NCBI GenBank assembly: GCA_031291435.1
Contig: JARLJC010000108.1
Location: 6,852-70,851, forward strand
Direction of reading: 5' to 3'
Source of the DNA: Alphaproteobacteria bacterium
GTDB taxonomy: Bacteria; Pseudomonadota; Alphaproteobacteria; UBA9219
DNA length: 64,000 nucleotides
This document shows positions 18,502 to 53,524 of the stretch, piece by piece (the stretch's first letter is position 1; each line of letters begins with the position of its first letter). Under the pieces are notes generated by a model. It was not told the origin of the DNA. It did no database searches and saw only the letters and a program-made list of their open reading frames with translations. Position numbers and translations under genes: made by a program.

Positions 18502-19116
18502 GTGATCCACCCGGAACAGATAAGAGCGGCGCGCGCCATGCTGAGCCTTAGCCAGCGGCAACTGGCGAAAAAAGCCGGCGTTTCGGTGGCCACGCTCAAC
18601 AATATCGAACGTGGCGCGCAGACCGACCCCAAGATCAGCACGATTACCGCCATTCAGCAGGCGCTGGAATCGCGCGGCGTCGAATTTACCAATGCCTATG
18701 AAGGCGCCGGGGTGTTGCTCAAACCGATGCGCAACGGCGACGCCGGCGCCACCGTCCTGATCGTCGATGACAGCCGCGAGGACCGCCTGCTGTATAAAAA
18801 CTGGCTCGGCAAATCGGCGCATAAAAAATACCGCGTGGTCGAGGCCGACAATGCCCGCTCCGGATACGGCGCCTTCATCGAAAGCCATCCCGATTGCATC
18901 GTTCTCGATTTCAAGATGTATGGCAGCGACGGTTTCCAGATGCTCGCCGAAATGAAGAAAGATCATGTCCGTTTGCCGCCCATCGTGTTTGTCACCGGGC
19001 TGCATAACGACGTGCTGAAGGAAAGCGCGGAACGTCAGGGCGTCGCCGCCTATCTCGAGAAAAAGAACCTGACGAAAGAAAGGTTTCATGAGGCCATTGA
19101 GCGAGCGCTCGCCTGA
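18502..19116 (+). CDS. Response regulator with reversed architecture: HTH_XRE then REC (second copy)
   Basis: 204 aa with a GTG start. HTH: IRAARAMLSLSQRQLAKKAGVSVATLNNIERG. REC: LIVDDSRED, IVLDFKMYG, FVTG, LEKK. Confidence 0.85.
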   Translation: MIHPEQIRAARAMLSLSQRQLAKKAGVSVATLNNIERGAQTDPKISTITAIQQALESRGVEFTNAYEGAGVLLKPMRNGDAGATVLIVDDSREDRLLYKNWLGKSAHKKYRVVEADNARSGYGAFIESHPDCIVLDFKMYGSDGFQMLAEMKKDHVRLPPIVFVTGLHNDVLKESAERQGVAAYLEKKNLTKERFHEAIERALA

Positions 19117-20605
19117 ATCCAGCCGCGACCGGCTGCAGGCGATAGTCGACAACGCTTTGGATGGATTGATCACCATCGATAAGCGCGGCCTTATAGAAAC
19201 GTTCAACCCGGCATGCGGGCGTATTTTTGGCTATACCGCCGAAGAGGTGGTGGGGCAGAACGTCAAAATGCTGATGCCCGAGCCCTATCACAGCGAGCAT
19301 GACGGCTATCTGCATAATTACCAGACCACCGGCCAGCCCAAGATCATCGGCACGCCGGGACGCGAAGTTTCCGGGCGCCGCAAGGACGGCACGGTTTTTC
19401 CGCTCGATCTTTCCGTCAGCAGTTTCGAGCTTGAAGACGGCGCGCATTATTGCGGCATCATCCGTGATGTCAGCCTGCGCCAGCTATCGGCCCAGCATCT
19501 GAAGGACGAGAGCGAGCGCGTGCTGGCGATCATGAAAACGGTGCTCGACGGCGTCATCACCATCAGCGACCGCGGCCTGATCCAAAGCTTTAACCCGGCG
19601 GCGGTGCGTATTTTCGGGTATGAGCCGGAAGAAGTCATCGGTCAGAATGTCAAAATCCTGATGCCCGAACCCTACCATTCCGGGCACGACAATTATCTGC
19701 ATAATTATCTGACGACCGGCGAGAAAAAGGTCATCGGCATCGGCCGCGAAGTCAGCGCCAAGCGCAAGGACGGCTCGATTTTCCCGATGGAGCTCGGCGT
19801 CAACGAAATGAGCATTCAGGGCGAACGCATGTTCGTCGGCACCATTCGCGATATCACCGAACGCAAAAAAGCGGAACTCGAGATCAAGCGTTACCTCGCC
19901 TCGCTCAAGCGCAGCAATCAGGAACTCGACGATTTTGCTCATATCGCTTCGCATGATTTGAAAGAACCGCTACGCGGCCTCAGCAACAACGCCATGTTTC
20001 TAAAGGAAGATGTCGGCGACAGGCTCGACCAGGCCTGCGTCAAGCGCCTTGATCGCATGGTGTTCCTGTGTGAGCGGATGGAACGTCTCGTCAACGACCT
20101 GCTTTATTTCTCGCGTCTCGGGCGGCAGGAACTCGCGGTGCAGCGTACCGATCTCAACGAGGTCGTCAGGGATATCGAATCCATGATGGAAAATACGCTG
20201 CATGAAACACACACAACCATCGTTATCGACCTGGAATTGCCGGTCATTACCTGCGATTTGCCGCGTGTAACCGAGGCTTTCCGCAACCTGATCACCAACG
20301 CCATCAAATATAACGACAAGCCCGAGAAACGGATTGCCATCGGCTATGAATTTATCAATGGCGAACGCGCTTATTACGTGCGCGATAACGGCATCGGCAT
20401 CTCCGAACAATTTCATAGCGACGTGTTCCGCATCTTCAAGCGCCTGAACGACGAAGATGACAGCGTCAAGGGCACCGGCGTTGGCCTGACCTTCGTCAAG
20501 AAAATCGTCGAACGCCATGACGGCCGCATCTGGATCGACTCGAAAGTCGGCGAAGGCACCACTTTCTATTTCACCATCAACCAGCCCCGGGAGCATGATT
20601 TATGA
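19088..20605 (+). CDS. Histidine kinase with two tandem FixL-type heme-binding PAS domains
   Basis: 505 aa. PAS1 is LMPEPYHSEHDGYLHNYQTTGQPKIIGTPGREVSGRRKDGTVFPL. PAS2 is LMPEPYHSGHDNYLHNYLTTGEKKVIGIGREVSAKRKDGSIFPM. Both match the FixL heme-pocket signature. H-box SHDLKEPLRGL, then HATPase_c. Confidence 0.85.
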   Translation: MRPLSERSPESSRDRLQAIVDNALDGLITIDKRGLIETFNPACGRIFGYTAEEVVGQNVKMLMPEPYHSEHDGYLHNYQTTGQPKIIGTPGREVSGRRKDGTVFPLDLSVSSFELEDGAHYCGIIRDVSLRQLSAQHLKDESERVLAIMKTVLDGVITISDRGLIQSFNPAAVRIFGYEPEEVIGQNVKILMPEPYHSGHDNYLHNYLTTGEKKVIGIGREVSAKRKDGSIFPMELGVNEMSIQGERMFVGTIRDITERKKAELEIKRYLASLKRSNQELDDFAHIASHDLKEPLRGLSNNAMFLKEDVGDRLDQACVKRLDRMVFLCERMERLVNDLLYFSRLGRQELAVQRTDLNEVVRDIESMMENTLHETHTTIVIDLELPVITCDLPRVTEAFRNLITNAIKYNDKPEKRIAIGYEFINGERAYYVRDNGIGISEQFHSDVFRIFKRLNDEDDSVKGTGVGLTFVKKIVERHDGRIWIDSKVGEGTTFYFTINQPREHDL

Positions 20606-21045
20606 ACGCTTTGGCCAATATTCTTCTGGTGGAAGACAATCCCGATGATTTCGAGGCGACGTCGCGCAGCCTGCAGAGAAATCATTTCGTCAATCCGGTG
20701 CGCTGGTGCCGCACCGGCAGGGACGCCATCGACTATCTGCGCCACGGGGGCGTTTACGCCGGCGACGCCAAGGTTTTGCGGCCCGATCTGATCCTACTCG
20801 ACCTCAATATGCCGGGCATCGACGGGCGCAAGGTTCTGGAGATTATCAAATCCGACGACGATCTGAAATCGATCCCGGTCGTTGTTCTGACCACCTCGCG
20901 CGACTCCAAGGATGTCGATCAATGCTACGCCATCGGCGCTAATACCTATATCCAGAAGCCGGTCAGTTTCGAAGGGCTGACGCAGGCGATCGGCGCCATG
21001 AAGGATTACTGGTTCGGCATTGCCATCCTTCCCCGCACGGAATGA
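20602..21045 (+). CDS. Single-domain response regulator (CheY/Rcp1-like)
   Basis: 147 aa (ILLVEDNPDDFE, LILLDLNMPG, VLTTS, YIQKP). ATGA overlap with the upstream kinase. Confidence 0.9.
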   Translation: MNALANILLVEDNPDDFEATSRSLQRNHFVNPVRWCRTGRDAIDYLRHGGVYAGDAKVLRPDLILLDLNMPGIDGRKVLEIIKSDDDLKSIPVVVLTTSRDSKDVDQCYAIGANTYIQKPVSFEGLTQAIGAMKDYWFGIAILPRTE

Positions 21046-21052
21046 GGAAATC

Positions 21053-22585
21053 ATGATCGATCAGCCCATCAGTATCCTCATCATCGACGACAGTCCCGAC
21101 GACCGTGAAAATTATATCAGGCTCCTCAAGAAAAATGCCGAAGTGGCTTTTCGCTGCCACGAAACCGGCGAAGGGCAGGCGGGCCTTGCCGCCGTCAATG
21201 AATTGAGGCCCGATTGCGTGCTGCTCGATTATTCCCTGCCCGGCGCCAACGGGCTCGAGGTTTTAAAGACGATCAAGGCGCAGAAACATGTCGTGCCGGT
21301 TATCCTGCTGACGGGGCAGGGCAGCGAGGCGATCGCCGTGCAGGCGATCAAGCTGGGCGCCGACGATTACCTCGCCAAATCGGCGATGACGGTGGAAAGC
21401 CTGTGCCGCTCGATCCGCATCGCCATCGAACATAATTATCTGCAGGGCAGGATCGACGAACAGACCGCGCTGCTGCTGAAAAATGAAACCCGTTATCAGC
21501 AATTGATCGACGGACTGCACGATCATTCTTTTTGCTGGATCGACAAAGAAGGCCGCGTCGAAAGCTGGAACAGCGGGGCCGAAAGAATGATGGGCTATAG
21601 CGAAAAGGAAATCATCGGCCAGCCGGTGTCCCTCTTCTATACCGAAGAAGACCGCCGCGCCGGCAAGGATGCCGCCGCGCTCGCCAACGCCCTCACCACG
21701 GGCAAATTCACCTGCGACCGCTGGCACATGCGCAAGGATGGCAGCCAGTTCTGGTGCAACGTTCAGGTCGATGCCCTGCGCGACAATGAGGGGGCGATCG
21801 TCGGATTCATCAAGGTGACGCACGACATCACCGAACGCCGCGAGGCCGAACTGGAACGCAACGCGCTGATGGAAAAACTGATGCGGTCCAACACGGAACT
21901 GGAACGCTTCGCCTATGTCGCGTCGCACGATATGCAGGAACCCGTGCGCATGGTGATGAATTTCAGCCGCATCATCGCCCGCGATTACGCGGATAAATTC
22001 GACGAAGAAGGCCGCGAATATCTGCAATTCGTGACCGAATCCGCCGACCGTATTCACGATATGATCGACGACCTGCTCGACTACGCCCGCATGGGCAGCG
22101 AGGATACCGGCATGAGCCTGGTCGACGGCGATGGCGAGCTCGGCCATGTTCTCGACAATCTCGCCGAACTTATCCGCGAGACCGGGGCCGAAGTGACGCA
22201 TGATGTTTTGCCGTCCTTTCACGGGAATCCCGTGCAGTTCATGCGCCTGATGCAGAACCTGATTTCCAACGCCATCAAATACCAGCCGCCCGGGAACAAG
22301 CCGGTGGTGCGCATCGGCGTCGAGGATCAGGGCGACAGCTGGCGCCTCTCGGTGGCCGACAATGGACTTGGCGTCGACGAGGCGTTCGCCGAGAAAATTT
22401 TCGAACCCTTCCGCCGCCTGCATAGCTGGGAACAGATCAAGGGCACCGGCCTCGGCCTCGCGGTATGCCGACGGATCGTCGAAAATCACGGGGGCAGGAT
22501 CGAGATGAAATCGGCGCCGGGGCGGGGCAGCACTTTCTTCGTCATCCTGCCCAAACAACACCTCAACAGGCAGATGGTCGCATGA
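21053..22585 (+). CDS. Hybrid REC-PAS-histidine kinase
   Basis: I prefer the ATG at 21053 (MIDQPISILIIDDSPDD), preceded by GAGGAAA. REC, then a generic PAS, then H-box SHDMQEPVRM and HATPase_c. Confidence 0.85.
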   Translation: MIDQPISILIIDDSPDDRENYIRLLKKNAEVAFRCHETGEGQAGLAAVNELRPDCVLLDYSLPGANGLEVLKTIKAQKHVVPVILLTGQGSEAIAVQAIKLGADDYLAKSAMTVESLCRSIRIAIEHNYLQGRIDEQTALLLKNETRYQQLIDGLHDHSFCWIDKEGRVESWNSGAERMMGYSEKEIIGQPVSLFYTEEDRRAGKDAAALANALTTGKFTCDRWHMRKDGSQFWCNVQVDALRDNEGAIVGFIKVTHDITERREAELERNALMEKLMRSNTELERFAYVASHDMQEPVRMVMNFSRIIARDYADKFDEEGREYLQFVTESADRIHDMIDDLLDYARMGSEDTGMSLVDGDGELGHVLDNLAELIRETGAEVTHDVLPSFHGNPVQFMRLMQNLISNAIKYQPPGNKPVVRIGVEDQGDSWRLSVADNGLGVDEAFAEKIFEPFRRLHSWEQIKGTGLGLAVCRRIVENHGGRIEMKSAPGRGSTFFVILPKQHLNRQMVA

Positions 22586-23067
22586 GCCTCAGTCCCGTCG
22601 CCAGCAAGAAACGCAGCGCCGAAATCCTTCTGATCGAGGATAATCGCGGCGACGCGGTCCTGGCCGCGCGTGCTTTCCGCGAGGCGCATGTGCCCACGCA
22701 TATGAGCCTGGCGGCCAGCGCCGAGGAGGCGCTCGGCATGCTGCGCCACGAAGACGGTTATGAAGCCTGTGCGCCGCCCGACCTGATTTTGCTCGACCTC
22801 AATCTGATGCGCATGCACGGCCACGATTTTCTGAAAATCGTCAAGGCGGACGCCCGGCTGCGGCACATTCCGGTGGTCGTGCTGTCGAGTTCGCGCGCGC
22901 TGCACGACGTCATCGCCAGTTACGATGGTTATGCCAGCGGTTATATCGTCAAGCCCCTCGGGCTTGAGCCTTACAGGGAGCTGGTCACGGCGGTCGAGCA
23001 GTTCTTCTTCCGGCAGGCCACGCTGCCCGATGCCGCCGATCTCGAACCGAACGGAGGGTTGCTATGA
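22582..23067 (+). CDS. Single-domain response regulator
   Basis: ATG at 22582 in an ATGA overlap with the kinase stop. Product MSLSPVASKKRSAEILLIEDNRGD..., LILLDLNLMRMHG, VLSSS, YIVKP. Confidence 0.85.
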   Translation: MSLSPVASKKRSAEILLIEDNRGDAVLAARAFREAHVPTHMSLAASAEEALGMLRHEDGYEACAPPDLILLDLNLMRMHGHDFLKIVKADARLRHIPVVVLSSSRALHDVIASYDGYASGYIVKPLGLEPYRELVTAVEQFFFRQATLPDAADLEPNGGLL

Positions 23068-23780
23068 ACAGGATGCAAAGCGAACCGGAAATCGCCAGCG
23101 AATTCCGAGATTATGTTTACGGCGTTTCGCACGATGTCAGCGCGCCGGTGCGGGCGATGGTCGAATTTTCCCGTCTTTTGACCGGCGACCATGTCAGCCA
23201 TCTTGACGAAGAAGGCCGTCTCTATCTGTCACTCATCATCGATAATGGCGAGAAATTGCAAAAAATGATGGCGGGCTTGCTCGATTATTCGCGCCTCAAT
23301 ACCGAAGCGCGGCCTTTCGCCCCCGTCGATTGCGACGCGGCGGTGAAGGACGCGCTGTTGTCGCTCGACGACATTATCCGCGCCAAGCAGGCGCGGATCG
23401 AATGCGGGCCGATGCCCGTGATTATCGGCGACGCTACTCAAATCTGGCAGTTGTTTGTGGCGTTGATCGACAACGCGCTCAAATTCCAGCAGGCCGGATC
23501 GATTCCGCACATCAAGATTGCGGCGGAGAAGCATAAGGATATGTGGCAATTTTCCGTGAGCGACAACGGCATCGGCATCGACGAGCGTTTTCGCGAGAAA
23601 ATTTTCACCGTCTTCCAGCGCTTGCATTCAGGCGATGATTTTCCCGGTATCGGCATCGGCCTCACGCTGGCGCGCAAGATTGTGCGCCGTCATGGCGGCG
23701 AGATCCGGGCCGAATCGCATCCCGGTCCCGGTGTTACGTTGCTTTTCACTCTCCCGGTTCAGGGCATCGTCGCCGGATAG
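23064..23780 (+). CDS. Sensor-less histidine kinase core (HisKA + HATPase_c only)
   Basis: 238 aa with an ATGA overlap with the upstream REC gene. H-box VSHDVSAPVRAM. N and G boxes are present. There is no TM or PAS domain. Confidence 0.85.
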   Translation: MNRMQSEPEIASEFRDYVYGVSHDVSAPVRAMVEFSRLLTGDHVSHLDEEGRLYLSLIIDNGEKLQKMMAGLLDYSRLNTEARPFAPVDCDAAVKDALLSLDDIIRAKQARIECGPMPVIIGDATQIWQLFVALIDNALKFQQAGSIPHIKIAAEKHKDMWQFSVSDNGIGIDERFREKIFTVFQRLHSGDDFPGIGIGLTLARKIVRRHGGEIRAESHPGPGVTLLFTLPVQGIVAG

Positions 23781-23894
23781 GCATAAAACCTACGCGCGCG
23801 CCTTATTCCAACACCGCCGTATGCCGCGTTTTTAAGGTTGGGTAAGGGCTTGGTGGGATACTGCGACGGTAACTCGAATCAAGGTCGATGAGCC

Positions 23895-24899
23895 ATGAAA
23901 GCTTCTTCCGCCTTACACATTCTTCTGGTGGATGATTCCAGAGGCGATGCTCTGATGATCGACCGCGCCATTCATCAGGTGATGCCTGAAGCGTGCGACG
24001 TGCAGCGCGCCGAGACTTTGGCCGGAACTTTGAGACTATTGTCCCAGCATCATTTCGATGTCGCCCTGCTCGATCGCTCGCTGCCCGACGTCGTCGGCAA
24101 CAGCGGCCTGCAAAGCATCCAGAACATGGCGCCCGATTTGCCGGTGGTGTTCCTGACCGCCTATAAAAGCGAGAATGCGGCGCTGGAGGCGATCGAGCAG
24201 GGCGCGCAGGATTACCTGTTCAAGGACAAGATCGACGGCCCCGCCATCAAGCGCGCCATTCAGTTCGCCATCATTCGCAAGCATTTCGAAAGCACCCTGC
24301 AGATGCAGGCTAATTTCGATCCTTTGACGGGACTTGCCAACCGCATGTCGTTCGAAGGCAGGCTCGAGATGGCGCTGGAACGGATGAAGCGCCGCGAAGG
24401 CAGCATCGGCGTCCTGTTTCTCGATCTCAACCGGTTCAAGCCGGTCAACGATACATATGGGCACGCGATGGGCGACCGGCTGCTGGTGGAAATCGGGTCG
24501 CGCATCAAATCGTGCCTGCGGCCCTATGATGCCGCAGCGCGCTTCGGCGGCGACGAATTCGCGGTGCTGATCGAGGATATCGCCGCGCCCGAACAATGCG
24601 CCGGCATTGCCCGCAAAATGATCAATGCCATCGAACAGCCTTTCGCGAGTTCTGGCATCGATCTTAAAGTAGGGGTCAGTATCGGCGTCGCCATCTGCGG
24701 CGCGCCCCTCACCTGCGGCCGCGAGGAACTGATACGCCGCGCCGACGCCGCCATGTATGCGGCCAAAGCCATGCCAGAAAGCGCCTGCCGGTTCTGGGAT
24801 GGGTCGTCGCCGGTCGCGTCTCAGGCCCTGAAGTTCGAGACGCGCGACAAAATCGGATTGATCTCGCCGATGTCGAGCGGTTTGGCCAGGCATCCGTAA
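23895..24899 (+). CDS. REC-GGDEF diguanylate cyclase
   Basis: 334 aa. REC: ILLVDDSRGD, ALLDRSLPD. The active site is an intact GGDEF, with an RxxD I-site (RPYD) five residues upstream. Confidence 0.88.
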   Translation: MKASSALHILLVDDSRGDALMIDRAIHQVMPEACDVQRAETLAGTLRLLSQHHFDVALLDRSLPDVVGNSGLQSIQNMAPDLPVVFLTAYKSENAALEAIEQGAQDYLFKDKIDGPAIKRAIQFAIIRKHFESTLQMQANFDPLTGLANRMSFEGRLEMALERMKRREGSIGVLFLDLNRFKPVNDTYGHAMGDRLLVEIGSRIKSCLRPYDAAARFGGDEFAVLIEDIAAPEQCAGIARKMINAIEQPFASSGIDLKVGVSIGVAICGAPLTCGREELIRRADAAMYAAKAMPESACRFWDGSSPVASQALKFETRDKIGLISPMSSGLARHP

Positions 24900-44700: not shown

Positions 44701-46900
44701 CACTTTGTCCGGCAATATCACCACCACCGGCAATATGGCTTTGCGAAGCGGCGGCACCGTCAACGCCACCGGCGCGCTGACCGTCAATACGCTCGGCCTC
44801 GACGGCGCGGGCGGCGTCTTCAATCTCGACAATTCGGCGAACGTCGTCAGCAATCTTCTGACCACCGATTCGGTCGGCACGGTCGATTTCCTCGACAACC
44901 ATGCTCTCAATATTTCCGATACCTATCTGAACGAAGGCGCCAACGCCTGGAACAATCCGCCGGACGATAATGTCGGCTTTGCCGGCGTACATGCCAGCAA
45001 CCGCGTTTATATCAATGCGGCAGGCAATGTTACCATAGCTTCGGGTGATACGGTAACGGCGCAGGGTTCTTATACCGGTTCGGCCACCTACAGCAGCCCC
45101 GCCAACAAGAACGTGCAGGAAGCGGCCTCGGTGGTGCTGGTCTCGGGCGGCATCTTCACCAATAACGAGGGCAGCGACGCGATTTCGACCGCGGCCAGCA
45201 ACCGTTTCCTGGTTTACGCTTCGGCGCCCAAGAACAATACCAGCGGCAGCGGTTCGGGCGAGAACATGTCGTACGATTTCAAGATGTACGCCTTCGATTT
45301 CTACAACAGCGGCCACACCGGTAATGGCAATAACGGTTTCGATTACGACAATGGCGGTTTCGGCCGCAGCCTTCCCGCCAGCACCGTCGGCAGCGGCTTC
45401 ATCTATTCCAGCCAGCCGACTTTGACCGTCACGCCCAAGGCGCAGAGCGGCACCTACGGCAACAGCCCAAGCCTCAGCACAGTTTACAACACCGGTTATC
45501 AGCTGGGCGGTTTCGTCGACGGCGACAGCCAGAGCAACGATACCGGCACGCCCGCCTTCACCACGACGGCGACCAGCGCTTCGGCGGTCGGCACTTACGA
45601 TATTTCCTACACGGCGGCTACAGCGGGCGACGCCACTCACGGTCTCGTGCCCAAATATAACGGCGTCGTGATGGGCTACAGCGTCGTCAACAGCACGCGC
45701 GCCAATGGCTATACCGTCGGCCAACGTCCGATCACCGTCACCGCCACCGGCGGCCAGAGCATGGTTTATGGCGACAGCGTTCCGACGCTTGCTTACACCG
45801 TAAGCAGCGGCACACTCGTCAACACCGGCACCAGCGGCAATGGCAGCCTGTCGGGCAACCTCGCCACCAATGCCACGTCCGCGTCGAATGTCGGCAACGG
45901 CTACAACATTACGCAAGGCACGCTCGCCAATGCCAATTACCTTATCACGTATAACGGCACCACTTTCAGCATCACCAAGCGTCCGGTCACCATCACCGCC
46001 ACCGCCGATCAAAGCAAAATCGTCGGCACCGCCGATCCTGTCTTCACTTATTCGCCGTCTTATACCGGCAACGGCGGCAAACCCGCACTCGTCAACGGCA
46101 ATACATTCACGGGCCTTCTGACCCGCGACAGCGGCGAGCTGGTCGGCAGCTACAACATCAATCAGGGCAGTCTCGCTATTTCCGACGGGAACAGCGGCAA
46201 TAATTATCAAATCACCTATGTGACGAATCCGTTCAAGGTCAATCCGATTATCTCCGTTCCTGCCACAGACCCGCAAACCGGCGTCAACGGCACCGGATCG
46301 ACCGTGGCTGCGGATACGGCGGCGAACAATGTTGGCCCCGGCACCGGTTCCGGCACCATCACCACCAACGCCAACACACAACTGGTCTCCGATAACCAGA
46401 CGCATGCGCCCGCAACCGGCGGCATGACTCTGACATCGGGCGGCGGCACCGGCCCCGTTTCCGTCACGCAGTCTGGCCCCACCGTGACCTTCACCTTCCC
46501 CGCTGGCGCTACCGTGCCGCCGGTGCCGCCTGCCGCGCAATCGGGCCTGCCGCTGTTCGTCGCCGGCAGCGGGCAGGGCACCACTTACAGCCTGACGCAA
46601 AAAGGTTCGGCGCTCAGCGCCACCACGGTCGGCGCCGCGACAACGCCGCAACCCACCAACACCGTGTTCGCCAGCACACCCGCGCAGGCAAGCCTCACCC
46701 AATCCGACGGTTCCAGCCTGACGATTTCGGTGGGCATTTCCTCGACCGGGGTTTTGGTGGTAGAAGTTCCCGCCGGGTCGATATCCACCCTTGATCCTCA
46801 AACGACGATGCTGCTCGCCTGGACGGTTGCCAGCCAGAATTTCGGCGCTAATGTAGGAAGCATCACCTCCGTCGTGATTACCCCGGCTAAAGAATCCTGA
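41741..46900 (+). CDS. Two-partner-secretion exoprotein (TpsA, filamentous haemagglutinin family) with MBG-type repeats
   Basis: 1719 aa. Extended signal peptide. The TPS domain reads LPTGGQIVSGSGSI...VNQSS.KLVANWSSFDIG...VNFVQPS...ALNRI...LTANGKVILVNPNGIIFG. A beta-helix Gly/Asn/Thr-rich body follows. Three MBG-like units (...YGDSVPTLAYTV...NYLITYNGTTFSITKRPVTITAT...). Confidence 0.9.
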   Translation: MSHPFLPVCHRSPGQRQKIRPGRTGITLALGLMLGGAAHAAAPASNALPTGGQIVSGSGSISQTASSLTVNQSSDKLVANWSSFDIGSNASVNFVQPSATSVALNRISGGASQIFGHLTANGKVILVNPNGIIFGAGSRVDVGGLVASSLDMSDADFAAGNNHFAGSGTGPIVNNGTITVPAGSVVAMIAPQVSNNGTINASGGGVALAAGQDVTLDFTGDNLVSVTVSRAAFDALVENKGIIVADGGVAIMSAQSANALLETVVNNDGIVQANSLSDKNGRIILDGGDSGTVAVSGTLQADGTQAGQSGGTITATGNQVNVAATVVIDASGNAGGGTIKIGGGVRGQDASIANAKDVTVAAGAQIKANATDNGNGGTVTVWSDGKTDVSGAMQAKGGPNGGDGGYVETSGASLTLEKYLFVNTGAAKGSGGLWLLDPTTETYQTIGGTEASAIETALASGEVNDVTSGGIHITSSIVSGAGNKLTFQSANQILVDAVTVSTGGGALYFGGEAGGTSYATGAASGQAGVVLNGSTLNAGAGLLTIRGQGYTPGLLTGTGSLSANESAGIGVDFQGTVSLTGGTINVTGVGGTGQAVENTTATGPLVTGTGYFWSTNTHVGGNNGASASAGDGAVGVDVESGASVTVTGSTAATINATGGDGGDASIDNLGGSGSWGGNGAIGYYQQGAVAFNTPTATISASRGYSGYGSSPGYYVDEAVGPQCNGDCNYDAYDSGNGLYDAYGGGTEEYGTTPQISYNDGSGSDASYALYINGNLSNTNGVGSILNIEGNYDAYQNSGALTASHVMMEGLDSENPVFNFSQANNAIDMLASQSVGTLYFNDKDSGTQSLHIGTVSGVAGVNTASETNIQVQGGNGASASLIVDNGAGVAAGTYGTLTANTILFNSGDSSISGTYFAVRPYSTSQNFVMAAADPNAGGDLYIPVGNISKFNSSSLTFGDSADTGNVTVSSNADFGSTNMAFLTGSGGITLSGNITTTGNMALRSGGTVNATGALTVNTLGLDGAGGVFNLDNSANVVSNLLTTDSVGTVDFLDNHALNISDTYLNEGANAWNNPPDDNVGFAGVHASNRVYINAAGNVTIASGDTVTAQGSYTGSATYSSPANKNVQEAASVVLVSGGIFTNNEGSDAISTAASNRFLVYASAPKNNTSGSGSGENMSYDFKMYAFDFYNSGHTGNGNNGFDYDNGGFGRSLPASTVGSGFIYSSQPTLTVTPKAQSGTYGNSPSLSTVYNTGYQLGGFVDGDSQSNDTGTPAFTTTATSASAVGTYDISYTAATAGDATHGLVPKYNGVVMGYSVVNSTRANGYTVGQRPITVTATGGQSMVYGDSVPTLAYTVSSGTLVNTGTSGNGSLSGNLATNATSASNVGNGYNITQGTLANANYLITYNGTTFSITKRPVTITATADQSKIVGTADPVFTYSPSYTGNGGKPALVNGNTFTGLLTRDSGELVGSYNINQGSLAISDGNSGNNYQITYVTNPFKVNPIISVPATDPQTGVNGTGSTVAADTAANNVGPGTGSGTITTNANTQLVSDNQTHAPATGGMTLTSGGGTGPVSVTQSGPTVTFTFPAGATVPPVPPAAQSGLPLFVAGSGQGTTYSLTQKGSALSATTVGAATTPQPTNTVFASTPAQASLTQSDGSSLTISVGISSTGVLVVEVPAGSISTLDPQTTMLLAWTVASQNFGANVGSITSVVITPAKES

Positions 46901-46929
46901 GGCCGTTCAGATAAAAGGTCCCGCTTTTC

Positions 46930-48693
46930 ATGCTGACAACAAAACCGGTTTTTCGCTTCCACATCTCGCATCTCGCGATGATTGCAAGTCTGGCCGCGGC
47001 GCCCGCTTTCGCCGCGCCCGCCGATAACCTTCCTGGCGCCGGGCAATTGCTCAACCAACAGCAGCAGCTGCGCCAGCAATTACCGCAACGTCTGCCGCAG
47101 GGCGAAGGCGAGGCGCAGGCGCCAGCCGTCAGTCCCCAGGCCGGGCCGCAGGTTCTGGTGCAGGATTTCCATTTCACCGGTGCCGACGGCCTTGCCGGCG
47201 ACGCCGATCTGCAGGCGGTGGTGGCGTCTTCGGTCGGGCAGAAGCTCAATTTCGCGCAATTACAGGCGGTGGCGGCCCGCGTCACCGATTATCTGAAACA
47301 GAAGGGCTGGCCTTTGGCGCACGCCTATCTGCCAAAGCAGGATGTCACCGACGGCCATATCGAAATCGCCATCCTGCAGGGTCATGTCGAAAGCAAGGGC
47401 GCGACCATCGTGGCCCATGACGATGTGCGCCTGTCGCCCGACATCATCAAGGGTACGGTCGATGGCGCGCTGCCCGGCGGCGCGCAGTCGCCGAGCCAGG
47501 AAGATCTCGAGCGCGGCGTATTGTTGCTGAACGACATGCCCGGTATGTCGGCCCATTCGACGCTGGAACGCGGCAGCGAACCCGAATCCACCCGCGTCGT
47601 CGTCGATACCAGCGAAGGCCCGTGGGTCAGCGGCTCATTATCCGCCGACAATTACGGCAACCGCTATACCGGCGCGCCGCAGCTTAATCCCGAGGCCAGC
47701 CTCAACGATCCGCTCGGCATCGGCGATCAGTTGACCGCGGGCGGCACCGCTTCGACCACCGGCGGCCTCGAACTTTTTCAGGCCGGCTACAGCCTGCCCA
47801 TCGGTGTTGACGGGTTGCGCTTCGCCGCCAGTTACGATCATCTGAAATATACGCTCGACCCCTCGATGGCGGGAACCGACGCCAACGGTACCGCGCAGAC
47901 TATCGATGCGAAATTGACCTATCCCCTGATCCGCACCCGCGCCACCAGCGTGTGGGGCGGCGTCGAATATTCCTATAAAACGCTGATGGATAACGTCGCG
48001 GGCACCACTATCAGCAACCGCACGATCCATGACGGCAGCGTCAACATCACCGCCACCGACAATGACGATTTCGGCGGCGGCGGCATGAACACTTTGCTGC
48101 TGTCGGCCACCACCGGCAATCTCGACCGCGGCGCGGTCGCTTCCGATCTGCAAACCGACAGCACCACAGCGCACAGCAATGGCCGGTTTGAAAAAGCCAC
48201 CGGCTCGGTCGCGCGTCTGCAGCATCTGACCGACGATTTCTCGTTCTTCGGCGCGGTGCGTGGGCAATTGGCCGATAAAAATCTCGATTCGTCCGAGAAA
48301 TTCATCCTCGGCGGCCCCACCGGCGTGCGCGCTTATCCCATCGGCGAAGGCACCGGCGACGAAGGCTGGGTCAGCAATCTCGAAGTGCGTTACGACGTGC
48401 CGCAGGAATTACCGATCGGCAAATTGCAGCTGATCGCGTTCGGCGACGCGGGCGGCGTGTGGCTGAACCATGATGCGTGGAGCGGCGCCGTCGATACCGC
48501 CACCGACAAGAACACTTATATGCTGGCGGGTGCCGGCATCGGGGCCAACCTGACGATGGCCGATGCCTATACCGTGCGCGCCTCCTGGGCGATCGCCATC
48601 GGCGATAATCCGGGCCGCAGCACGACCGGCGAGAACAGCGACGGCCTCAATCGCGGCAACGCTTTCTGGCTGCAGGCCGCCGCGCAGTTTTAA
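46930..48693 (+). CDS. TpsB outer-membrane transporter (ShlB/FhaC/HecB family)
   Basis: 587 aa. Signal peptide ...AAPAFA|AP, a POTRA region, a beta-barrel and the aromatic terminus ...WLQAAAQF. 29 nt after tpsA. Confidence 0.88.
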   Translation: MLTTKPVFRFHISHLAMIASLAAAPAFAAPADNLPGAGQLLNQQQQLRQQLPQRLPQGEGEAQAPAVSPQAGPQVLVQDFHFTGADGLAGDADLQAVVASSVGQKLNFAQLQAVAARVTDYLKQKGWPLAHAYLPKQDVTDGHIEIAILQGHVESKGATIVAHDDVRLSPDIIKGTVDGALPGGAQSPSQEDLERGVLLLNDMPGMSAHSTLERGSEPESTRVVVDTSEGPWVSGSLSADNYGNRYTGAPQLNPEASLNDPLGIGDQLTAGGTASTTGGLELFQAGYSLPIGVDGLRFAASYDHLKYTLDPSMAGTDANGTAQTIDAKLTYPLIRTRATSVWGGVEYSYKTLMDNVAGTTISNRTIHDGSVNITATDNDDFGGGGMNTLLLSATTGNLDRGAVASDLQTDSTTAHSNGRFEKATGSVARLQHLTDDFSFFGAVRGQLADKNLDSSEKFILGGPTGVRAYPIGEGTGDEGWVSNLEVRYDVPQELPIGKLQLIAFGDAGGVWLNHDAWSGAVDTATDKNTYMLAGAGIGANLTMADAYTVRASWAIAIGDNPGRSTTGENSDGLNRGNAFWLQAAAQF

Positions 48694-48914: not shown

Positions 48915-50147
48915 ATGATGCAAAGGCTGCGGGATTTTTTTGATTCCGACAATTTCATGCCGCACGGGCATTGTTTCCTGTGGCAGCCCGATATTTTGTG
49001 GCTGCATATCCTGTCGGATGCAATGATCGTCTCCGCCTATTATTCCATTCCCGGCGCGCTGCTTTATTTCGTGTGGAAACGAAAAGACCTGCCGTTCGGC
49101 ATCATTCTCTGGCTGTTCGGGGCTTTCATTCTTTTGTGCGGAACCACCCATTTGATGAGTATATGGGTGCTGTGGCATCCCGATTATGCGATCGAGGGCC
49201 TGTTTAAAGCCGCGACCGGCATCGTTTCCATCATCACTTTTTTCGTCACCGTGCGCCTTATCCCGCACGCGCTGCAACTGGCCAGCCCGGCGCAACTGGC
49301 GGCGCTGAACGAGACGCTGCGGCAGAATATCAGCGAGCGCGAAATTGCGCAGCAAGATCTGCAGCGCGCCTATCGCGAGATGGAAAAGAAAGTCGAGGAA
49401 CGCACCGCCGCCCTCAACGCGTCGCTCGAGCAGCTTTCCAAGTCGAATGACGAGCTCGACGAATTCGCCCATATCGTTTCCCACGATCTTAAGGAACCTT
49501 TGCGCGGCCTGCATAACAACGCTCTTTTTCTCCTCGATGATTATAAGGACAAACTCGATGCCAAAGGCGCCGGCTATCTTGACCGGCTGGTTCATCTTTC
49601 CGACCGCATGCAGAATCTGATCGAAGATCTTCTGTATTTCTCCCGCCTTGGCCATGCCGAGCTCGCGATACAGGAGACGGATCCCAATCTTGTCGTCGAT
49701 GAGATCGGGCAAATGATGGAATCTTTCCTCAAGGAACATAACGCCCGTATCGTCGTGCCGCGCCCGATGCCGCATGTCGTATGCGACAAACCGCGCATAA
49801 CGGAAGTTTTTCGCAACCTTATCACCAACGCCGTCAAATATAACGACAAGCCGGAACGGCTGGTGGAAGTGGGATTTCTAAAAAGTATGGACACGCCCCA
49901 GGGGCCCGCGCGCGACGTCTTTTATGTGCGCGACAACGGGATCGGCATCGATCCCCAGTTTCACGAAGAAATTTTCGGCATCTTTAAACGGCTCGATGCC
50001 GCCAGCGAAGATAAGGGCACCGGCGTGGGGCTGACATTCGTCCGCAGGATCATCACGCGCCACGGCGGACGCGTATGGGTGGAATCCGCTCCGGGCAAGG
50101 GCTCCACTTTCTATTTTGTCTTCTCGCAGAAGCCCGTGAAACCATGA
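48915..50147 (+). CDS. Histidine kinase with an N-terminal ETR1-like (ethylene-binding-domain-like) membrane module
   Basis: 410 aa. LSDAMIVSAYYSIPGALLYFVWKRKDLPFGIILWLFGAFILLCGTTHLMSIWVL parallels ETR1 [54 protein letters not shown], including the Cu-ligand Cys and His. A coiled coil, H-box SHDLKEPLRGL and HATPase_c follow. Confidence 0.75.
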   Translation: MMQRLRDFFDSDNFMPHGHCFLWQPDILWLHILSDAMIVSAYYSIPGALLYFVWKRKDLPFGIILWLFGAFILLCGTTHLMSIWVLWHPDYAIEGLFKAATGIVSIITFFVTVRLIPHALQLASPAQLAALNETLRQNISEREIAQQDLQRAYREMEKKVEERTAALNASLEQLSKSNDELDEFAHIVSHDLKEPLRGLHNNALFLLDDYKDKLDAKGAGYLDRLVHLSDRMQNLIEDLLYFSRLGHAELAIQETDPNLVVDEIGQMMESFLKEHNARIVVPRPMPHVVCDKPRITEVFRNLITNAVKYNDKPERLVEVGFLKSMDTPQGPARDVFYVRDNGIGIDPQFHEEIFGIFKRLDAASEDKGTGVGLTFVRRIITRHGGRVWVESAPGKGSTFYFVFSQKPVKP

Positions 50148-50188
50148 TCCGGTGGATTTAGGGGGCGGTATTCGTCTAGACTGGCCGG

Positions 50189-52372
50189 ATGGAACATTCG
50201 CCTCACCCCCATGATTGTTGCGCTACGCATCAGACGGTAACCGCGGTTGCCCCCGACGAGGCCGCTATCTATACATGCCCCATGCATCCGCAGGTGCGGC
50301 AAGCGGGGCCGGGACATTGCCCGATTTGCGGCATGACGCTGGAGCCGGTGGCGCTGGCCCTATCCGATCAGCCCGATCCTGAGCTTGCCAGTATGACCCG
50401 CCGCCTGTGGGTCGCCGTTATTCTGTCGGTGCCGCTGGTGGCCAAGGTTATGGGCGGGCATCTCGCCGCCCCCATGGATCAGACTATGGGCGGCGATGCC
50501 GGGCGCTGGTTTCAGCTCGCTCTGGCGACGCCGGTTGTCCTGTGGTGCGCGTGGCCTTTTTTCGCGCGCGGCTGGCAATCGATCGTCAATCGCAACCTCA
50601 ATATGTTCACGCTGATCGCGCTCGGCGTCGGCATGGCCTATGGCTACAGCCTCGCCGTTACTTTGTTTCCGGACTGGTTCCGGGCTTTTACCGGCGGCGG
50701 CGACATGCCGGACGTCTATTTTGAATCGGCCTCCGTCATCACGGCTCTGGTGCTGCTGGGGCAGGTGCTGGAATTGCGGGCGCGGTCGCAGACCAACAGC
50801 GCTTTACGGGCTTTGTTCGATCTGGCGCCCAAGATGGCGCGCCTGATCGCCGGCGACGGCAGCGAAAGCGATGTCGCGGTCAGCGACGTGAAGGCAGGCG
50901 ATCTGTTGCGGGTTCGCCCCGGCGAGAAAATTCCCGTCGACGGGGCGGTGACCGAGGGCGCGAGTTTCGTCGATCAGTCGATGCTGACCGGCGAATCCAT
51001 GCCGGTCGAGAAAAAGCCTGGCGACAAAGTGACCGGCGCGACGCTGAACGGCGCGGGCGGGTTCGTGATGCGCGCCGAACGGGTCGGCCTCGACACCATG
51101 CTGTCGCAGATCGTGGCGATGGTGGCGAAGGCGCAGCGCAGCCGCGCGCCGATTCAGCGCATGGCCGATATCGTCTCCGGCTATTTCGTGCCCGCTGTGG
51201 TCGCCGCCGCCATCCTGACCGCCGCCGCATGGGGATTGTTCGGGCCGTCGCCCCGCATGGCCCATGCGGTTCTGAACGCCATCGCCGTGCTTATCATCGC
51301 CTGCCCCTGCGCGCTCGGCCTCGCCACGCCGATGTCGATCATGGCGGGGACAGGGCGGGCGGCGCGCGCCGGTATCCTGATCCGCGACGCGGCGGCGCTC
51401 GAAACTTTCGAAAAGGTCGATACGCTGGTGATCGACAAGACCGGCACCCTGACTGAGGGCAAACCCAAGCTGATCGACCTCGTGACCGTGGGGGGATTCG
51501 ATATCCTGACCCTGCTGCGCCTTGCCGCAAGCATCGAGCGCGGCAGCGAGCACCCGTTGGCCGCCGCCATCACGCGCGGCGCCGCTGACAGGAGGGTGCA
51601 GGTGATGGAGGTTAAGGATTTCCAGTCCCTCACCGGCAAGGGCGTTACCGGTGTGGTCGAGGGCGCGCCTGTGGCGCTCGGCAACGCGGCCCTGATGCAG
51701 GCGATGAATGTCGATATCGAAGAGCTTGAAAAGCTTGCTCTTCCTTACCGCGACGCGGGGCAGACCGCCATGCTGCTGGCGGTCGATGGATTGCCTGCGG
51801 GGCTGATCGTGGTCGCCGATCCGGTCAAGGAAACGACGCCCGAAGCGATCCGGCTCCTGCGGCAGGAGGGGCTGCGCATCGTCATGCTGACCGGCGATAA
51901 TCGGGCCACGGCGCGGGCGGTGGCCAAAAAACTCGGCATCGACGAGGTCGAAGCCGATATGCTGCCCGCCCGCAAGGCCGAGATTATCGAGGCGCTGCAG
52001 AAGGCAGGGCGCAAGGTGGCGATGGCCGGCGACGGGGTCAATGACGCGCCCGCTCTGGCCGCCGCCGAGATCGGCATCGCGATGGGCAACGGCACCGATG
52101 TCGCGATGGAAAGTGCTGGCATCACCCTTATCAAAGGCGATCTGATGGGCATCGTGCGGGCGCGGCGGCTGAGCCGCGCGGTGATGGGCAATATCCGGCA
52201 GAATTTGTTCTTCGCCTTCGTCTATAACGTGCTGGGCGTGCCGGTGGCGGCGGGCGCGCTCTATCCGTTTTTCGGAATCCTGCTCAGCCCCATCATCGCC
52301 AGCGCGGCGATGGCGTTCAGCTCGGTATCGGTGATTAGCAACGCGCTGCGGCTGCGGCGAACGGAACTTTAA
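50189..52372 (+). CDS. copA: Copper-translocating P1B-type ATPase
   Basis: 727 aa. The N-terminal metal-binding module is [27 protein letters not shown] motif (IACPCALG), [15 protein letters not shown]. Confidence 0.9.
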
Positions 52373-52387
52373 GACAGCGACGTTCCC

Positions 52388-53524
52388 TTAATCCAGCGTT
52401 TGGCGGTAACGCTTCAGCGCAATGCCGCACATCACCAGAAGGAACAGCAGCATCGGCCAGATATTCGGCAGGATGTCGGCCACGCCATTACCCTTGAGGA
52501 CGATGCCGCGAATGATGCGCAAGGCGTAAGTGAGCGGGAATATGTTGCCGATAGCCTCCGCCCAATGCGGCATGCCGCGGAACGGATACATAAAGCCCGA
52601 CAGCAGCATCGCGGGCAGGAAATAGAAAGTCGCCATCTGCATCGCCTGTAACTGATTGCGGGCGAAAGTCGAGACGGTAAAGCCGATGGAAAGATTGGCG
52701 GCGATATAGACGCTGAGCGCCAATGAGAGCAGCAGCGGACTTCCGACGATGGGAATATTGAAGAGAATCTTGGCGACCACGAGGATAACCAGCACCTGCA
52801 TATAACCGATGATGATGAAGGGCGCGATTTTGCCGATCATCACTTCGATAGGCCGCGCGGGCGTGGCGAGAAGCGATTCCAGCGTGCCGCGTTCGCGCTC
52901 GCGCGTCATGGCGATGGCGGTCATGACGATAAGCGTCATGTTCAGAACCATGCCGATCATCCCCGGCACGATGTTATAGGAGGTGATGCCTTCGGGATTA
53001 TAGCGGTTATGCACGCGGATTTCGAAAGGCGGCAGGCGCGGTGCGAGGTCAGGCGAGGCGTCCGACAGATCGCGCGTCAGCGCCGTCATGTTGATGTGGC
53101 TGAGCGAGGCGATGGCGGGCCCGGTGGCGACGGGGTCGGTGGCGTCGGCCTCGACCAGCAAGGCGGGCCGCTCGCCGCGCAGAAGATCATGTGCGAAATT
53201 GGCGGGGAAACGCACGATGAACTGCACCTTGCCGCGCGCGATCAGTTTCTCGGCTTCGGCCTCGCTGGCGGGATAATCGGTGATCCGGAAATAGCCGGTA
53301 TTTTCCATGGCGGCGGTGATGCTGCGGACATAAGGCGACTGATCCGCCGTTATCATCGCGGTCGGCAGCAGCTTGGGGTCGGAATTGATGGCATAGCCGA
53401 ACAAAACCAGCTGCACGATGGGAACGATGAAAATCATGCCGAAGGTGGGGCGGTCGCGCAGAATCTGGATGAATTCCTTGGTCACGATCGCGCGGAGGCG
53501 CGTGGGGGAGAAGGATAAGTTCAT
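52388..53524 (-). CDS. ABC-2 type transporter permease
   Basis: 378 aa with an N-terminal TM, a large extracytoplasmic loop and a C-terminal 5-TM ABC-2 core. 4-nt overlap with the ATPase gene. Confidence 0.85.
   Translation of the reverse strand: MNLSFSPTRLRAIVTKEFIQILRDRPTFGMIFIVPIVQLVLFGYAINSDPKLLPTAMITADQSPYVRSITAAMENTGYFRITDYPASEAEAEKLIARGKVQFIVRFPANFAHDLLRGERPALLVEADATDPVATGPAIASLSHINMTALTRDLSDASPDLAPRLPPFEIRVHNRYNPEGITSYNIVPGMIGMVLNMTLIVMTAIAMTRERERGTLESLLATPARPIEVMIGKIAPFIIIGYMQVLVILVVAKILFNIPIVGSPLLLSLALSVYIAANLSIGFTVSTFARNQLQAMQMATFYFLPAMLLSGFMYPFRGMPHWAEAIGNIFPLTYALRIIRGIVLKGNGVADILPNIWPMLLFLLVMCGIALKRYRQTLD

Follow-up and report, generated by a model that had tools for sequence, protein, structure and literature searches.

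AzoEtr1 of Azospirillum brasilense Sp7 (PMC11819568) is, like the protein described here, an alphaproteobacterial histidine kinase that joins an ethylene-binding domain (EBD) to a HisKA-type output. Ethylene binding has been reported for it, and its residues D35, C75, H79 and K98 correspond to D25, C65, H69 and K91 of plant ETR1 (PMC11819568, PMC10266040); roles have been described for the EBD Asp and Lys, D35 and K98 (PMC10266040). SynEtr1 (slr1212) of Synechocystis PCC 6803 is also a bacterial EBD receptor; it autophosphorylates on a histidine and signals to a response regulator (PMC11819568, PMC6682694). Unlike our kinase, it is described as a bifunctional ethylene and light receptor with a downstream regulator, slr1213. 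Arabidopsis ETR1 belongs to the same EBD fold family and has the same Cu(I)-ligating residues as our kinase, but it also has GAF and receiver domains, and its signaling is for the most part independent of kinase activity.

ETR1 is tied by genetic and biochemical evidence to the copper ATPase RAN1/HMA7. Contact between the two requires an ATX1-like N-terminal region of RAN1, yet yeast Ccc2 or added copper can replace RAN1 (PMC6656775), so that in principle a receptor can do without a supplier of its own. How receptors obtain copper has been partly answered in plants; for bacteria the question is not addressed in the literature we found, where we also met no report of a link between bacterial EBD proteins and copper ATPases.

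We analyzed a 64-kb stretch of alphaproteobacterial DNA (the window) in which a gene for an EBD kinase is followed directly by one for a copper ATPase. We consider it probable that this is an intact ethylene-type receptor kinase with an ordinary efflux pump placed beside it by lineage-specific juxtaposition, the two forming no conserved functional unit. The features discussed below are as follows.

19088..24899, + strand: candidate downstream phosphorelay, from Pfam matches; its link to the EBD kinase is putative
48915..50147, + strand: sensor histidine kinase, 410 aa, from the ORF, Pfam ETR1_N, HisKA and HATPase_c, and full-length homologs
48960..48983, + strand: PHGHCFLW motif, kinase residues 16-23, in the N-terminal tail before the Pfam domain, from alignments
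48993..49280, + strand: EBD, kinase residues 27-122, with D35, Y42, I45-P46, C75, H79 and K98, from Pfam and alignments
49455..50126, + strand: kinase core (DHp with His190, N box, G1, G2), from Pfam and a motif scan
50148..50188, + strand: 41-nt spacer between kinase and ATPase; no site resembling a terminator or promoter is predicted in it
50189..52372, + strand: P1B-1 Cu(I)-exporting P-type ATPase, 727 aa, from Pfam, NCBIfam, motifs and homolog names

Ethylene-binding domain and kinase core

The kinase consists of an N-terminal EBD, a coiled linker, HisKA and HATPase_c, in that order. A first-pass annotation, made from the letters alone, had proposed an ethylene-receptor N-terminal domain here, and a profile search bears this out: Pfam ETR1_N (PF25487) matches residues 27-122 with an E-value of 2.9e-37 and 127.3 bits, where the cutoff is 27, covering profile positions 2-97 of 97. 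On profile score this match is far beyond chance. The same annotation described the resemblance to ETR1 as holding almost residue for residue. The motifs it named are all in register, but the peptide that it compared, kinase residues 33-84, is identical at 27 of 52 positions in a gapless alignment with the ETR1 segment quoted there, so that this wording was too strong.

Comparison with AzoEtr1 is more informative about individual residues. The two domains align without gaps over 146 aa at 51% identity, and D35, C75, H79 and K98 of the kinase fall in register with the same-numbered AzoEtr1 residues. Through this alignment and the published mapping (PMC11819568), C75 and H79 occupy the positions of ETR1 Cys65 and His69, as had been claimed. 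These two residues are invariant among 35 diverse bacterial EBDs, as are Y42, I45, P46, F71 and I72, while D35 and K98 are nearly so, at least 90% conserved both in the diverse set and in a closer one. The PHGHCFLW motif ahead of the Pfam domain is conserved in the EBD alignments as well, with C20 and W23 invariant. Together, the ETR1_N match and the residue register give good support to the ETR1-type identity of the domain.

Homology across the entire domain implies three transmembrane helices. A 19-residue hydropathy scan gave clear hydrophobic spans at approximately 57-87 and 92-122, and values under the chosen threshold for the region of helix I (approximately 27-51, with D35). A PDB search with the EBD as query found no match at E-values up to 1.

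The output half of the protein has its full set of kinase boxes. Both HisKA and HATPase_c exceed their Pfam cutoffs, and a motif scan located the H box HDLKEP with phospho-acceptor H190, along with the ATP-binding N box (NAVKY at 305), G1 box (DNGIG at 340) and G2 box (GTGVGL at 368). Full-length homologs were found at 58-74% identity, with alignments spanning 99-100% of the homologs. Pfam found no PAS, GAF or receiver domain in the kinase, nor any photosensory module. This sets it apart from AzoEtr1, a 525-aa protein with a PAS domain between EBD and kinase and with an overlapping downstream gene for a single-domain regulator. It is thus well supported from the protein's domains and motifs that we are dealing with an intact bacterial member of the ETR1-type EBD family in minimal form, the EBD being set straight onto the HisKA/HATPase core. 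The family is known, and the protein adds one more bacterial member to it, in the shortest architecture; its small size could make it a convenient construct for studies of binding or structure.

Two observations of the first-pass annotation on the surroundings of the gene also hold: the kinase lacks a GAF domain and a neighboring response regulator, and a genuine two-partner secretion pair lies upstream, with a TpsA (TPS domain and MBG_2 repeats) and a TpsB (ShlB/POTRA_2) recognized by Pfam. The kinase is flanked directly by TpsB and the ATPase, and the receiver domains closest to it are at 20.6-24.9 kb of the window. GC content is 54.7% for the kinase gene vs 65.3% for the pump gene. Their junction recurs in a second, independent assembly.

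Copper ATPase and spacer

The open reading frames of kinase and ATPase run as first annotated, and profiles and motifs agree with the assignment of the second gene, 41 nt downstream on the same strand, as a CPC-type copper ATPase. Its product has CPC, YN and MxxSS together with DKTGT, TGES and SEHP, in the expected order and spacing. This combination is the signature of Cu(I) P1B-1 ATPases. The protein scores 582 bits against TIGR01511 (cutoff 397) and exceeds the cutoff of TIGR01525 too, and its homologs carry the name Cu+-exporting ATPase. At the N-terminus it has an HMBD (PF19335; CPMH...CPICG, residues 28-54) and no ferredoxin-like HMA domain, there being neither an MxCxxC motif nor a PF00403 match; this HMBD-instead-of-HMA architecture is common among the homologs. 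RAN1/HMA7 and the window pump are both ATPases of the P1B-1 Cu(I) type and transport copper from the cytoplasm toward the side of the receptor N-terminus, but where RAN1 has its ATX1-like region the window pump has the HMBD, and Pfam found no ATX1-like domain in it.

Because the 41-nt gap contains no predicted terminator or promoter, co-transcription of kinase and ATPase is likely here, and transcription from the kinase may read through into the pump. When the spacer and the 3' end of the kinase gene were searched for a CueR/MerR-type operator or promoter, only unconvincing inverted repeats of 7-9 nt appeared. The window contains no other copper genes and no CueR, CsoR or CopRS regulator, which leaves the pump without an obvious local regulator.

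Occurrence of the pairing and its interpretation

We examined the pairing from both sides. On the kinase side, relatives were retrieved from public collections by two patterns, one of them [FY][MI]PHGHC[FY], and the locus search was based on 18 closer sequences; of about 600 matches, the genome and metagenome surveys each comprise the best 80. Cyanobacteria dominate the genome set, which makes the sampling of proteobacteria thinner, at about 59 loci with GC above 55% (0.68 Mb). Over genomes and metagenomes, with each survey taken as its best 80 of about 600, a P-type ATPase lay within 10 kb at 3 of 170 EBD loci, and none of the 170 had a directly adjoining ATPase or the same arrangement. By survey, the count within 10 kb was 0 of 80 for genomes and 2 of 80 for metagenomes (again the best 80 of about 600 in each), both metagenome ATPases being on the opposite strand, either 9.6 kb away or convergent. 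AzoEtr1 has no P-type ATPase within 10 kb. Among seven close relatives of the same architecture, not chosen for this feature, only one (L002) has an ATPase within that distance; none was found near the other six (P0003, P0007 at locus L087, P0010, P0011, P0019 and P0023). No copper genes were found near the EBD loci in a search that is weak for small proteins, as it missed a known DUF2933 gene in L002. The adjacency is therefore not conserved among relatives of the kinase.

L002 deserves closer attention as the nearest relative of the kinase, at 74% identity. It has an HMBD-type pump 3 kb downstream on the same strand, separated from the kinase by a response regulator and a hybrid kinase and accompanied by its own island-type DUF2933 gene. 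We rejected as the main reading that L002 and the window share an ancestral kinase-to-pump layout from which genes were later lost in the window, since the two pumps are 65% identical whereas many unlinked pumps are closer to the window pump, at 75-80%, and since the L002 pump has its own DUF2933.

On the pump side, the nearest relatives of the ATPase (77-80% identity, with the same HMBD, E1-E2 and HAD architecture) lie in copper-resistance islands in four distinct contexts. Their neighbors encode multicopper oxidase, CopB, CusF, DUF2933, CopZ-like HMA proteins and CsoR or MerR regulators, none of which is found in the 64 kb examined here. Relaxase, MobC or integrase genes occur in three of the four contexts, and an EBD gene in none.

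Since relatives of neither the kinase nor the pump share it, the pairing looks like a one-off placement of a mobile copper-resistance gene beside an EBD kinase. The first-pass annotation had drawn a different conclusion, that a receptor and its copper supplier are encoded side by side and that the linkage to copA is the novel aspect. With the adjacency absent on both sides, this reading is not supported and the linkage appears incidental; the ETR1-RAN1 link is genetic and biochemical, whereas that between the window kinase and pump is positional only and is not conserved. In this organism, co-transcription might still tie the expression of one gene to that of the other, and a pairing that proved functional would give a simple bacterial model of copper acquisition by ethylene receptors.

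In that narrower form, the supplier idea would be a lineage-specific coupling, in which a shared transcript yields a pump that brings Cu(I) within reach of the EBD, at the periplasmic face or in the membrane, analogous to RAN1 and ETR1. In its favor, only 41 nt with no predicted terminator separate the two genes, which share a strand; the topology fits, as one membrane would contain both the Cu(I) exporter and a receptor with three predicted helices and an outer N-terminus; the closest kinase relative, L002, also has an HMBD pump downstream; and the literature that we found does not take up the copper route to bacterial EBD proteins. We nonetheless regard this coupling as unlikely, given that 167 of the 170 EBD loci lack the linkage (each survey being its best 80 of about 600), as do all four pump contexts, that the characterized AzoEtr1 functions with no linked pump, that the window pump lacks the ATX1-like domain by which RAN1 contacts ETR1, and that yeast Ccc2 or added copper can stand in for RAN1 (PMC6656775). 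A bolder version strikes us as quite improbable: that in this uncultured lineage a mobile Cu(I) exporter was captured into the transcript of an orphan receptor kinase, coupling receptor synthesis to cofactor delivery as an independently evolved counterpart of RAN1-ETR1, with the loosely similar layout of L002 representing an earlier stage.

A different reason for the pump's position would be that the EBD senses Cu(I) in the membrane and that copper efflux is under the control of the kinase. By homology the EBD would bind Cu(I) through Cys and His, and with CueR, CsoR and CopRS absent throughout the window the pump has no obvious regulator nearby. The known copper-sensing kinases CusS and CopS have a periplasmic domain between two membrane helices and a paired, adjoining OmpR-type regulator. 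Our kinase instead has an intramembrane EBD of three predicted helices and no adjoining OmpR-type or other DNA-binding response regulator, and it scores only 79 bits against the heavy-metal kinase model TIGR01386, for which the cutoff is 293. Moreover, its relatives occur in light- or redox-type PAS kinase relays, beside flagellar genes or in unrelated contexts, and copper genes were not found with them, the L002 pump and its DUF2933 apart, in the search that is weak for small proteins. We consider this the least probable of the readings, and very improbable indeed. We also consider it improbable that the kinase is a stranded remnant, which lost its regulator and hybrid-kinase partners in a rearrangement that brought the pump and is now functionless or decaying. 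L002 and L004, the two closest relatives with context, do have a PAS kinase, EBD kinase, regulator and hybrid kinase in one cassette, and none of these partners is beside the window kinase. However, its reading frame is full length with near-complete homolog coverage and every EBD and kinase motif retained, relatives are commonly orphan EBD kinases with no regulator adjoining them, as P0011, P0019 and P0023 are, and a compatible relay is 28 kb away.

Juxtaposition, our preferred reading, would make the pump an ordinary HMBD-type Cu(I) efflux pump, its closest relatives traveling in mobile copper-resistance islands, that came to lie 41 nt after the kinase in this lineage.

Putative signaling route

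Judging from the homologs AzoEtr1 and SynEtr1, a single Cu(I), positioned by D35, most likely sits between C75 and H79 in each monomer of the receptor, and the ligand bound within the membrane would be ethylene or a similar small unsaturated molecule. The change caused by the ligand would travel over a D35-K98 bridge to helix III and alter autophosphorylation at H190.

The cassette at 19-25 kb, upstream of the kinase within the window, is the likely signaling partner, judging from sequence similarity and from the arrangement in relatives. It encodes three kinases (one PAS-PAS, one REC-PAS hybrid and one short), two regulators, of which the first, at 20602-21045, is a single-domain protein of 147 aa and the second lies at 22465-23067, and a REC-GGDEF protein. 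In gene order, the single-domain regulator stands between the PAS-PAS and hybrid kinases, and the second regulator between the hybrid and the short kinase. Kinase cores compared between the EBD kinase and the relay are 55% identical and share the H-box helix, and the 147-aa regulator shares 61-63% identity with those encoded immediately after the EBD kinase in L002 and L004. Having no regulator of its own, the window kinase most likely feeds the single-domain regulator and the hybrid-kinase relay. As the relay ends in the REC-GGDEF protein, the output would be c-di-GMP and surface behavior. Close relatives often set the kinase in a cassette of PAS kinase, EBD kinase, regulator and hybrid kinase, and the window kinase adds to a picture in which EBD receptors often feed multi-kinase relays rather than simple two-component pairs.

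The receptor kinase and the neighbouring pump

The first-pass annotation had described a 410-aa kinase gene followed, 41 nt further on, by an ATPase gene. Both ORFs were found where it placed them, and the peptide that it quoted is kinase residues 33-84. The kinase-ATPase junction recurs on a short contig of a second, independent assembly.

Kinase and pump features
48915-50147, +: ethylene-binding-domain (EBD) histidine kinase, 410 aa (ORF list)
Kinase residues 16-23 (48960-48983): PHGHC(F/Y)LW motif in the N-terminal tail, ahead of the Pfam ETR1_N model
Kinase residues 27-122: ETR1_N (PF25487; Pfam)
Kinase residues 181-246: HisKA (Pfam)
Kinase residues 291-404: HATPase_c (Pfam)
50189-52372, +: Cu(I) P-type ATPase (the pump), 727 aa (ORF list)
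Pump residues 28-54: HMBD (PF19335; Pfam), then E1-E2 ATPase and HAD domains

To the extent that sequence can tell, the kinase is an ethylene-binding-domain protein. Its N-terminus matched nearly the entire ETR1_N profile (E 2.9e-37), and when 35 diverse bacterial EBDs are aligned, residues Y42, I45, P46, F71, I72, C75 and H79 are invariant, with D35 and K98 conserved in at least 90%. As reference for AzoEtr1, the EBD receptor of Azospirillum brasilense Sp7, which binds ethylene (PMC11819568), we took a 525-aa ORF from replicon p1, whose length agrees with the authors' figure. It aligns with the kinase without gaps (51% identity, 146 residues) and shares D35, C75, H79 and K98 at identical residue numbers. 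Its authors map these four to D25, C65, H69 and K91 of Arabidopsis ETR1 (PMC11819568), and what they do in binding copper and ethylene and in transmitting the signal has been described (PMC10266040). The Cys/His pair, C75/H79, thus lies at the ETR1 Cys65/His69 positions, as had been claimed. The likeness to ETR1 had been called almost residue for residue; the motifs are correct, but the wording was overstated, with 27 of 52 residues identical in a gapless comparison to the ETR1 fragment quoted there. A PDB search with the EBD found no solved EBD structure for comparison.

Pfam found no PAS, GAF or receiver domain in the 410 residues, and the kinase core is complete for the H (H190), N, G1 and G2 boxes (motif scan). 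Judged by these profiles and alignments, the EBD assignment is sound, and the kinase adds a new member, of minimal architecture, to a family already known. The PHGHC(F/Y)LW motif is strongly conserved (C20 and W23 are invariant in the 35 bacterial EBDs), reading PHGVCLFW in AzoEtr1, and the tail that carries it is presumably periplasmic. In ETR1, Cys4 and Cys6 form the dimer disulfide; the motif could be the counterpart of this, or a copper-capture site. No discussion of it was found in the EBD literature examined.

The identification of the next gene as a CPC-type copper ATPase held up as well. The CPC (372), YN (679) and MxxSS (708) motifs of the pump, with DKTGT, TGES and SEHP, make up the signature of Cu(I)/Ag(I) P1B-1 ATPases, and the protein exceeds the NCBIfam thresholds for copper and heavy-metal P1B subfamilies. 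Pfam and a motif scan found no MxCxxC HMA domain in it; the HMBD CxxC motif is present instead. Its named homologs, mostly from unclassified Alphaproteobacteria, are all annotated as Cu+-exporting or copper-translocating ATPases.

Adjacency among kinase and pump relatives

An EBD-only alignment was used to retrieve two sets of 80 loci, one from one-genome-per-species contigs and the other from metagenome contigs, each set being the best 80 of ~600 matches. Flanks of up to 10 kb per locus were searched by tblastn (E 1e-10) with the window pump, a query sensitive to any P1B ATPase. No P-type ATPase was found at the 80 genome loci (1.43 Mb; best 80 of ~600), and two were found at the 80 metagenome loci (0.79 Mb; best 80 of ~600): the L090 pump is encoded on the opposite strand at a distance of 9.6 kb, and that of L092 is convergent, past an NnrU gene. 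The L092 EBD protein differs from the kinase, being a 1014-aa EBD-PAS-PAS-GAF-kinase-receiver hybrid. The AzoEtr1 locus has no pump within 10 kb. Gene contexts were read directly for seven close relatives with the short architecture of the kinase.

Contexts of seven close kinase relatives (identity to the kinase)
P0002 (74%): PAS kinase, EBD kinase, 153-aa regulator, hybrid kinase, two small ORFs, DUF2933, HMBD pump starting 3 kb past the kinase
P0003 (68%): kinase cassette as in P0002, no pump
P0007 (locus L087, 64%): multi-kinase and regulator cluster, no pump
P0010 (62%): multi-kinase and regulator cluster, no pump
P0011 (61%): orphan EBD kinase beside flagellar genes, no pump
P0019 (60%): orphan EBD kinase beside RND-efflux genes, no pump
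P0023 (58%): orphan EBD kinase beside glycogen genes, no pump

P0002 alone shows a loosely similar layout, and one such case in seven close relatives that were not selected for this feature is not significant. Overall, a P-type ATPase occurs in 3 of 170 EBD loci (~2.4 Mb, each survey being the best 80 of ~600 matches), or ~1.25 per Mb. One to a few P1B ATPases can be expected per 4-8 Mb of bacterial genome, and the rate here differs from chance by no more than about a factor of two.

Viewed from the pump side, the contexts of four close relatives (77-80% identity) contain no EBD gene.

Contexts of four close pump relatives
L170: CsoR-type repressor, multicopper oxidase, CopB, DUF2231; with relaxase and MobC
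L171/L172: HMA/MauE, multicopper oxidase, CopB, CusF-like, DUF411, DUF2933, ICMT, HMA chaperone; with integrase
L173: NikA/MobC and integrase nearby
L175: MerR, HMA, CsoR-type repressor, DUF2933, ICMT

DUF2933 and ICMT-like genes recur in these copper-resistance islands, and relaxase, MobC or integrase genes are present in three of the four contexts; the pump thus appears to belong to a family that moves with such islands. These HMBD-type CopA contexts are consistent with horizontal spread of the pump family. An EBD-PAS protein on Rhodovastum atsumiense plasmid RHOApc (L177, 10001-12079) lies amid integrases and IS66, IS6 and IS1595 transposases, so EBD genes themselves can occupy mobile contexts.

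Origin of the gene pair

Among the loci surveyed, the kinase-pump adjacency is essentially unique to the window contig, which leaves unsupported the earlier proposal of a receptor and its cofactor supplier encoded side by side. The best explanation is that a mobile copper-efflux gene came to rest beside an orphan receptor kinase. The pump has a GC content of 65.3% and GC3 of 0.81, well above the 54.7% and 0.68 of the kinase, and many of its relatives, at 75-80% identity, are far closer to it than the pump of the P0002 locus (65%). No island-type copper genes are detectable in the whole 64 kb, where it stands alone.

Co-transcription could instead couple kinase and pump in this lineage specifically, which we consider improbable. 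The 41-nt spacer and its surroundings have no predicted terminator-like or sigma-70-like site, and the only inverted repeats are short and trivial, so read-through from kinase into pump is plausible; this possible read-through is the sole positive argument for coupling. The topology is soundly analogous to that of ETR1 and RAN1, the Arabidopsis copper ATPase that loads it, in placing a Cu(I) exporter in one membrane with a receptor that has its N-terminus on the non-cytoplasmic side. The RAN1-ETR1 interaction needs the N-terminal ATX1-like region of RAN1, and yeast Ccc2 or added copper can replace RAN1 (Hoppen et al., PMC6656775); unlike RAN1, the window pump has no ATX1-like N-terminal domain. 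A literature search turned up no publication describing linkage between an EBD and a copper pump in bacteria.

Proposed signalling partners and flanking genes

In the P0002 and P0003 loci, a PAS kinase precedes the EBD kinase, an overlapping single-domain regulator follows it, and a hybrid kinase comes next. The window has a cluster resembling these cassettes.

19088-24899, +: PAS-PAS kinase, 147-aa regulator (20602-21045), REC-PAS-kinase hybrid, regulator, short kinase without sensor domain, REC-GGDEF diguanylate cyclase (Pfam)

The EBD kinase and the cluster PAS kinase are 55% identical across the DHp and catalytic domains and share the same helix after the phospho-acceptor His (SHDLKEPLRGLxNNA), and the 147-aa single-domain regulator is 61-63% identical to those following the EBD kinase in the two relatives. 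We infer that the orphan EBD kinase probably feeds the relay at 19088-24899, with c-di-GMP as the final output; such an output would fit what has been reported of AzoEtr1 and of SynEtr1, the EBD receptor (slr1212) of Synechocystis PCC 6803, namely biofilm and surface phenotypes (PMC11819568). The orphan P0011 kinase directly follows fliL, fliM and adjoining flagellar genes (L165, 6712-11257), and AzoEtr1-YFP gathers at the flagellum-bearing pole (PMC11819568), so a link between EBDs and motility may recur.

The adhesin-type two-partner secretion pair reported upstream of the kinase is indeed there (41741-48693, +): the gene for a 1719-aa TpsA exoprotein, with a TPS domain and three MBG_2 repeats, precedes that for a ShlB-type TpsB transporter. 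Past the pump, whose stop codon is 15 nt from it, an operon of ABC-2 permease, ABC ATPase and HlyD lies on the opposite strand; the interval between the convergent ATPase and ABC-2 permease gene ends (52372-52388) has no predicted terminator-like site. Elsewhere in the window, a 771-aa ORF (5112-7427, +) contains a long stretch that is rich in Glu, Gln, Arg and Pro and highly repetitive (EQPEQREEPRQQEQ...); it is this stretch that raises the AT skew in the composition profile to a spike of 0.36 at 6-8 kb.
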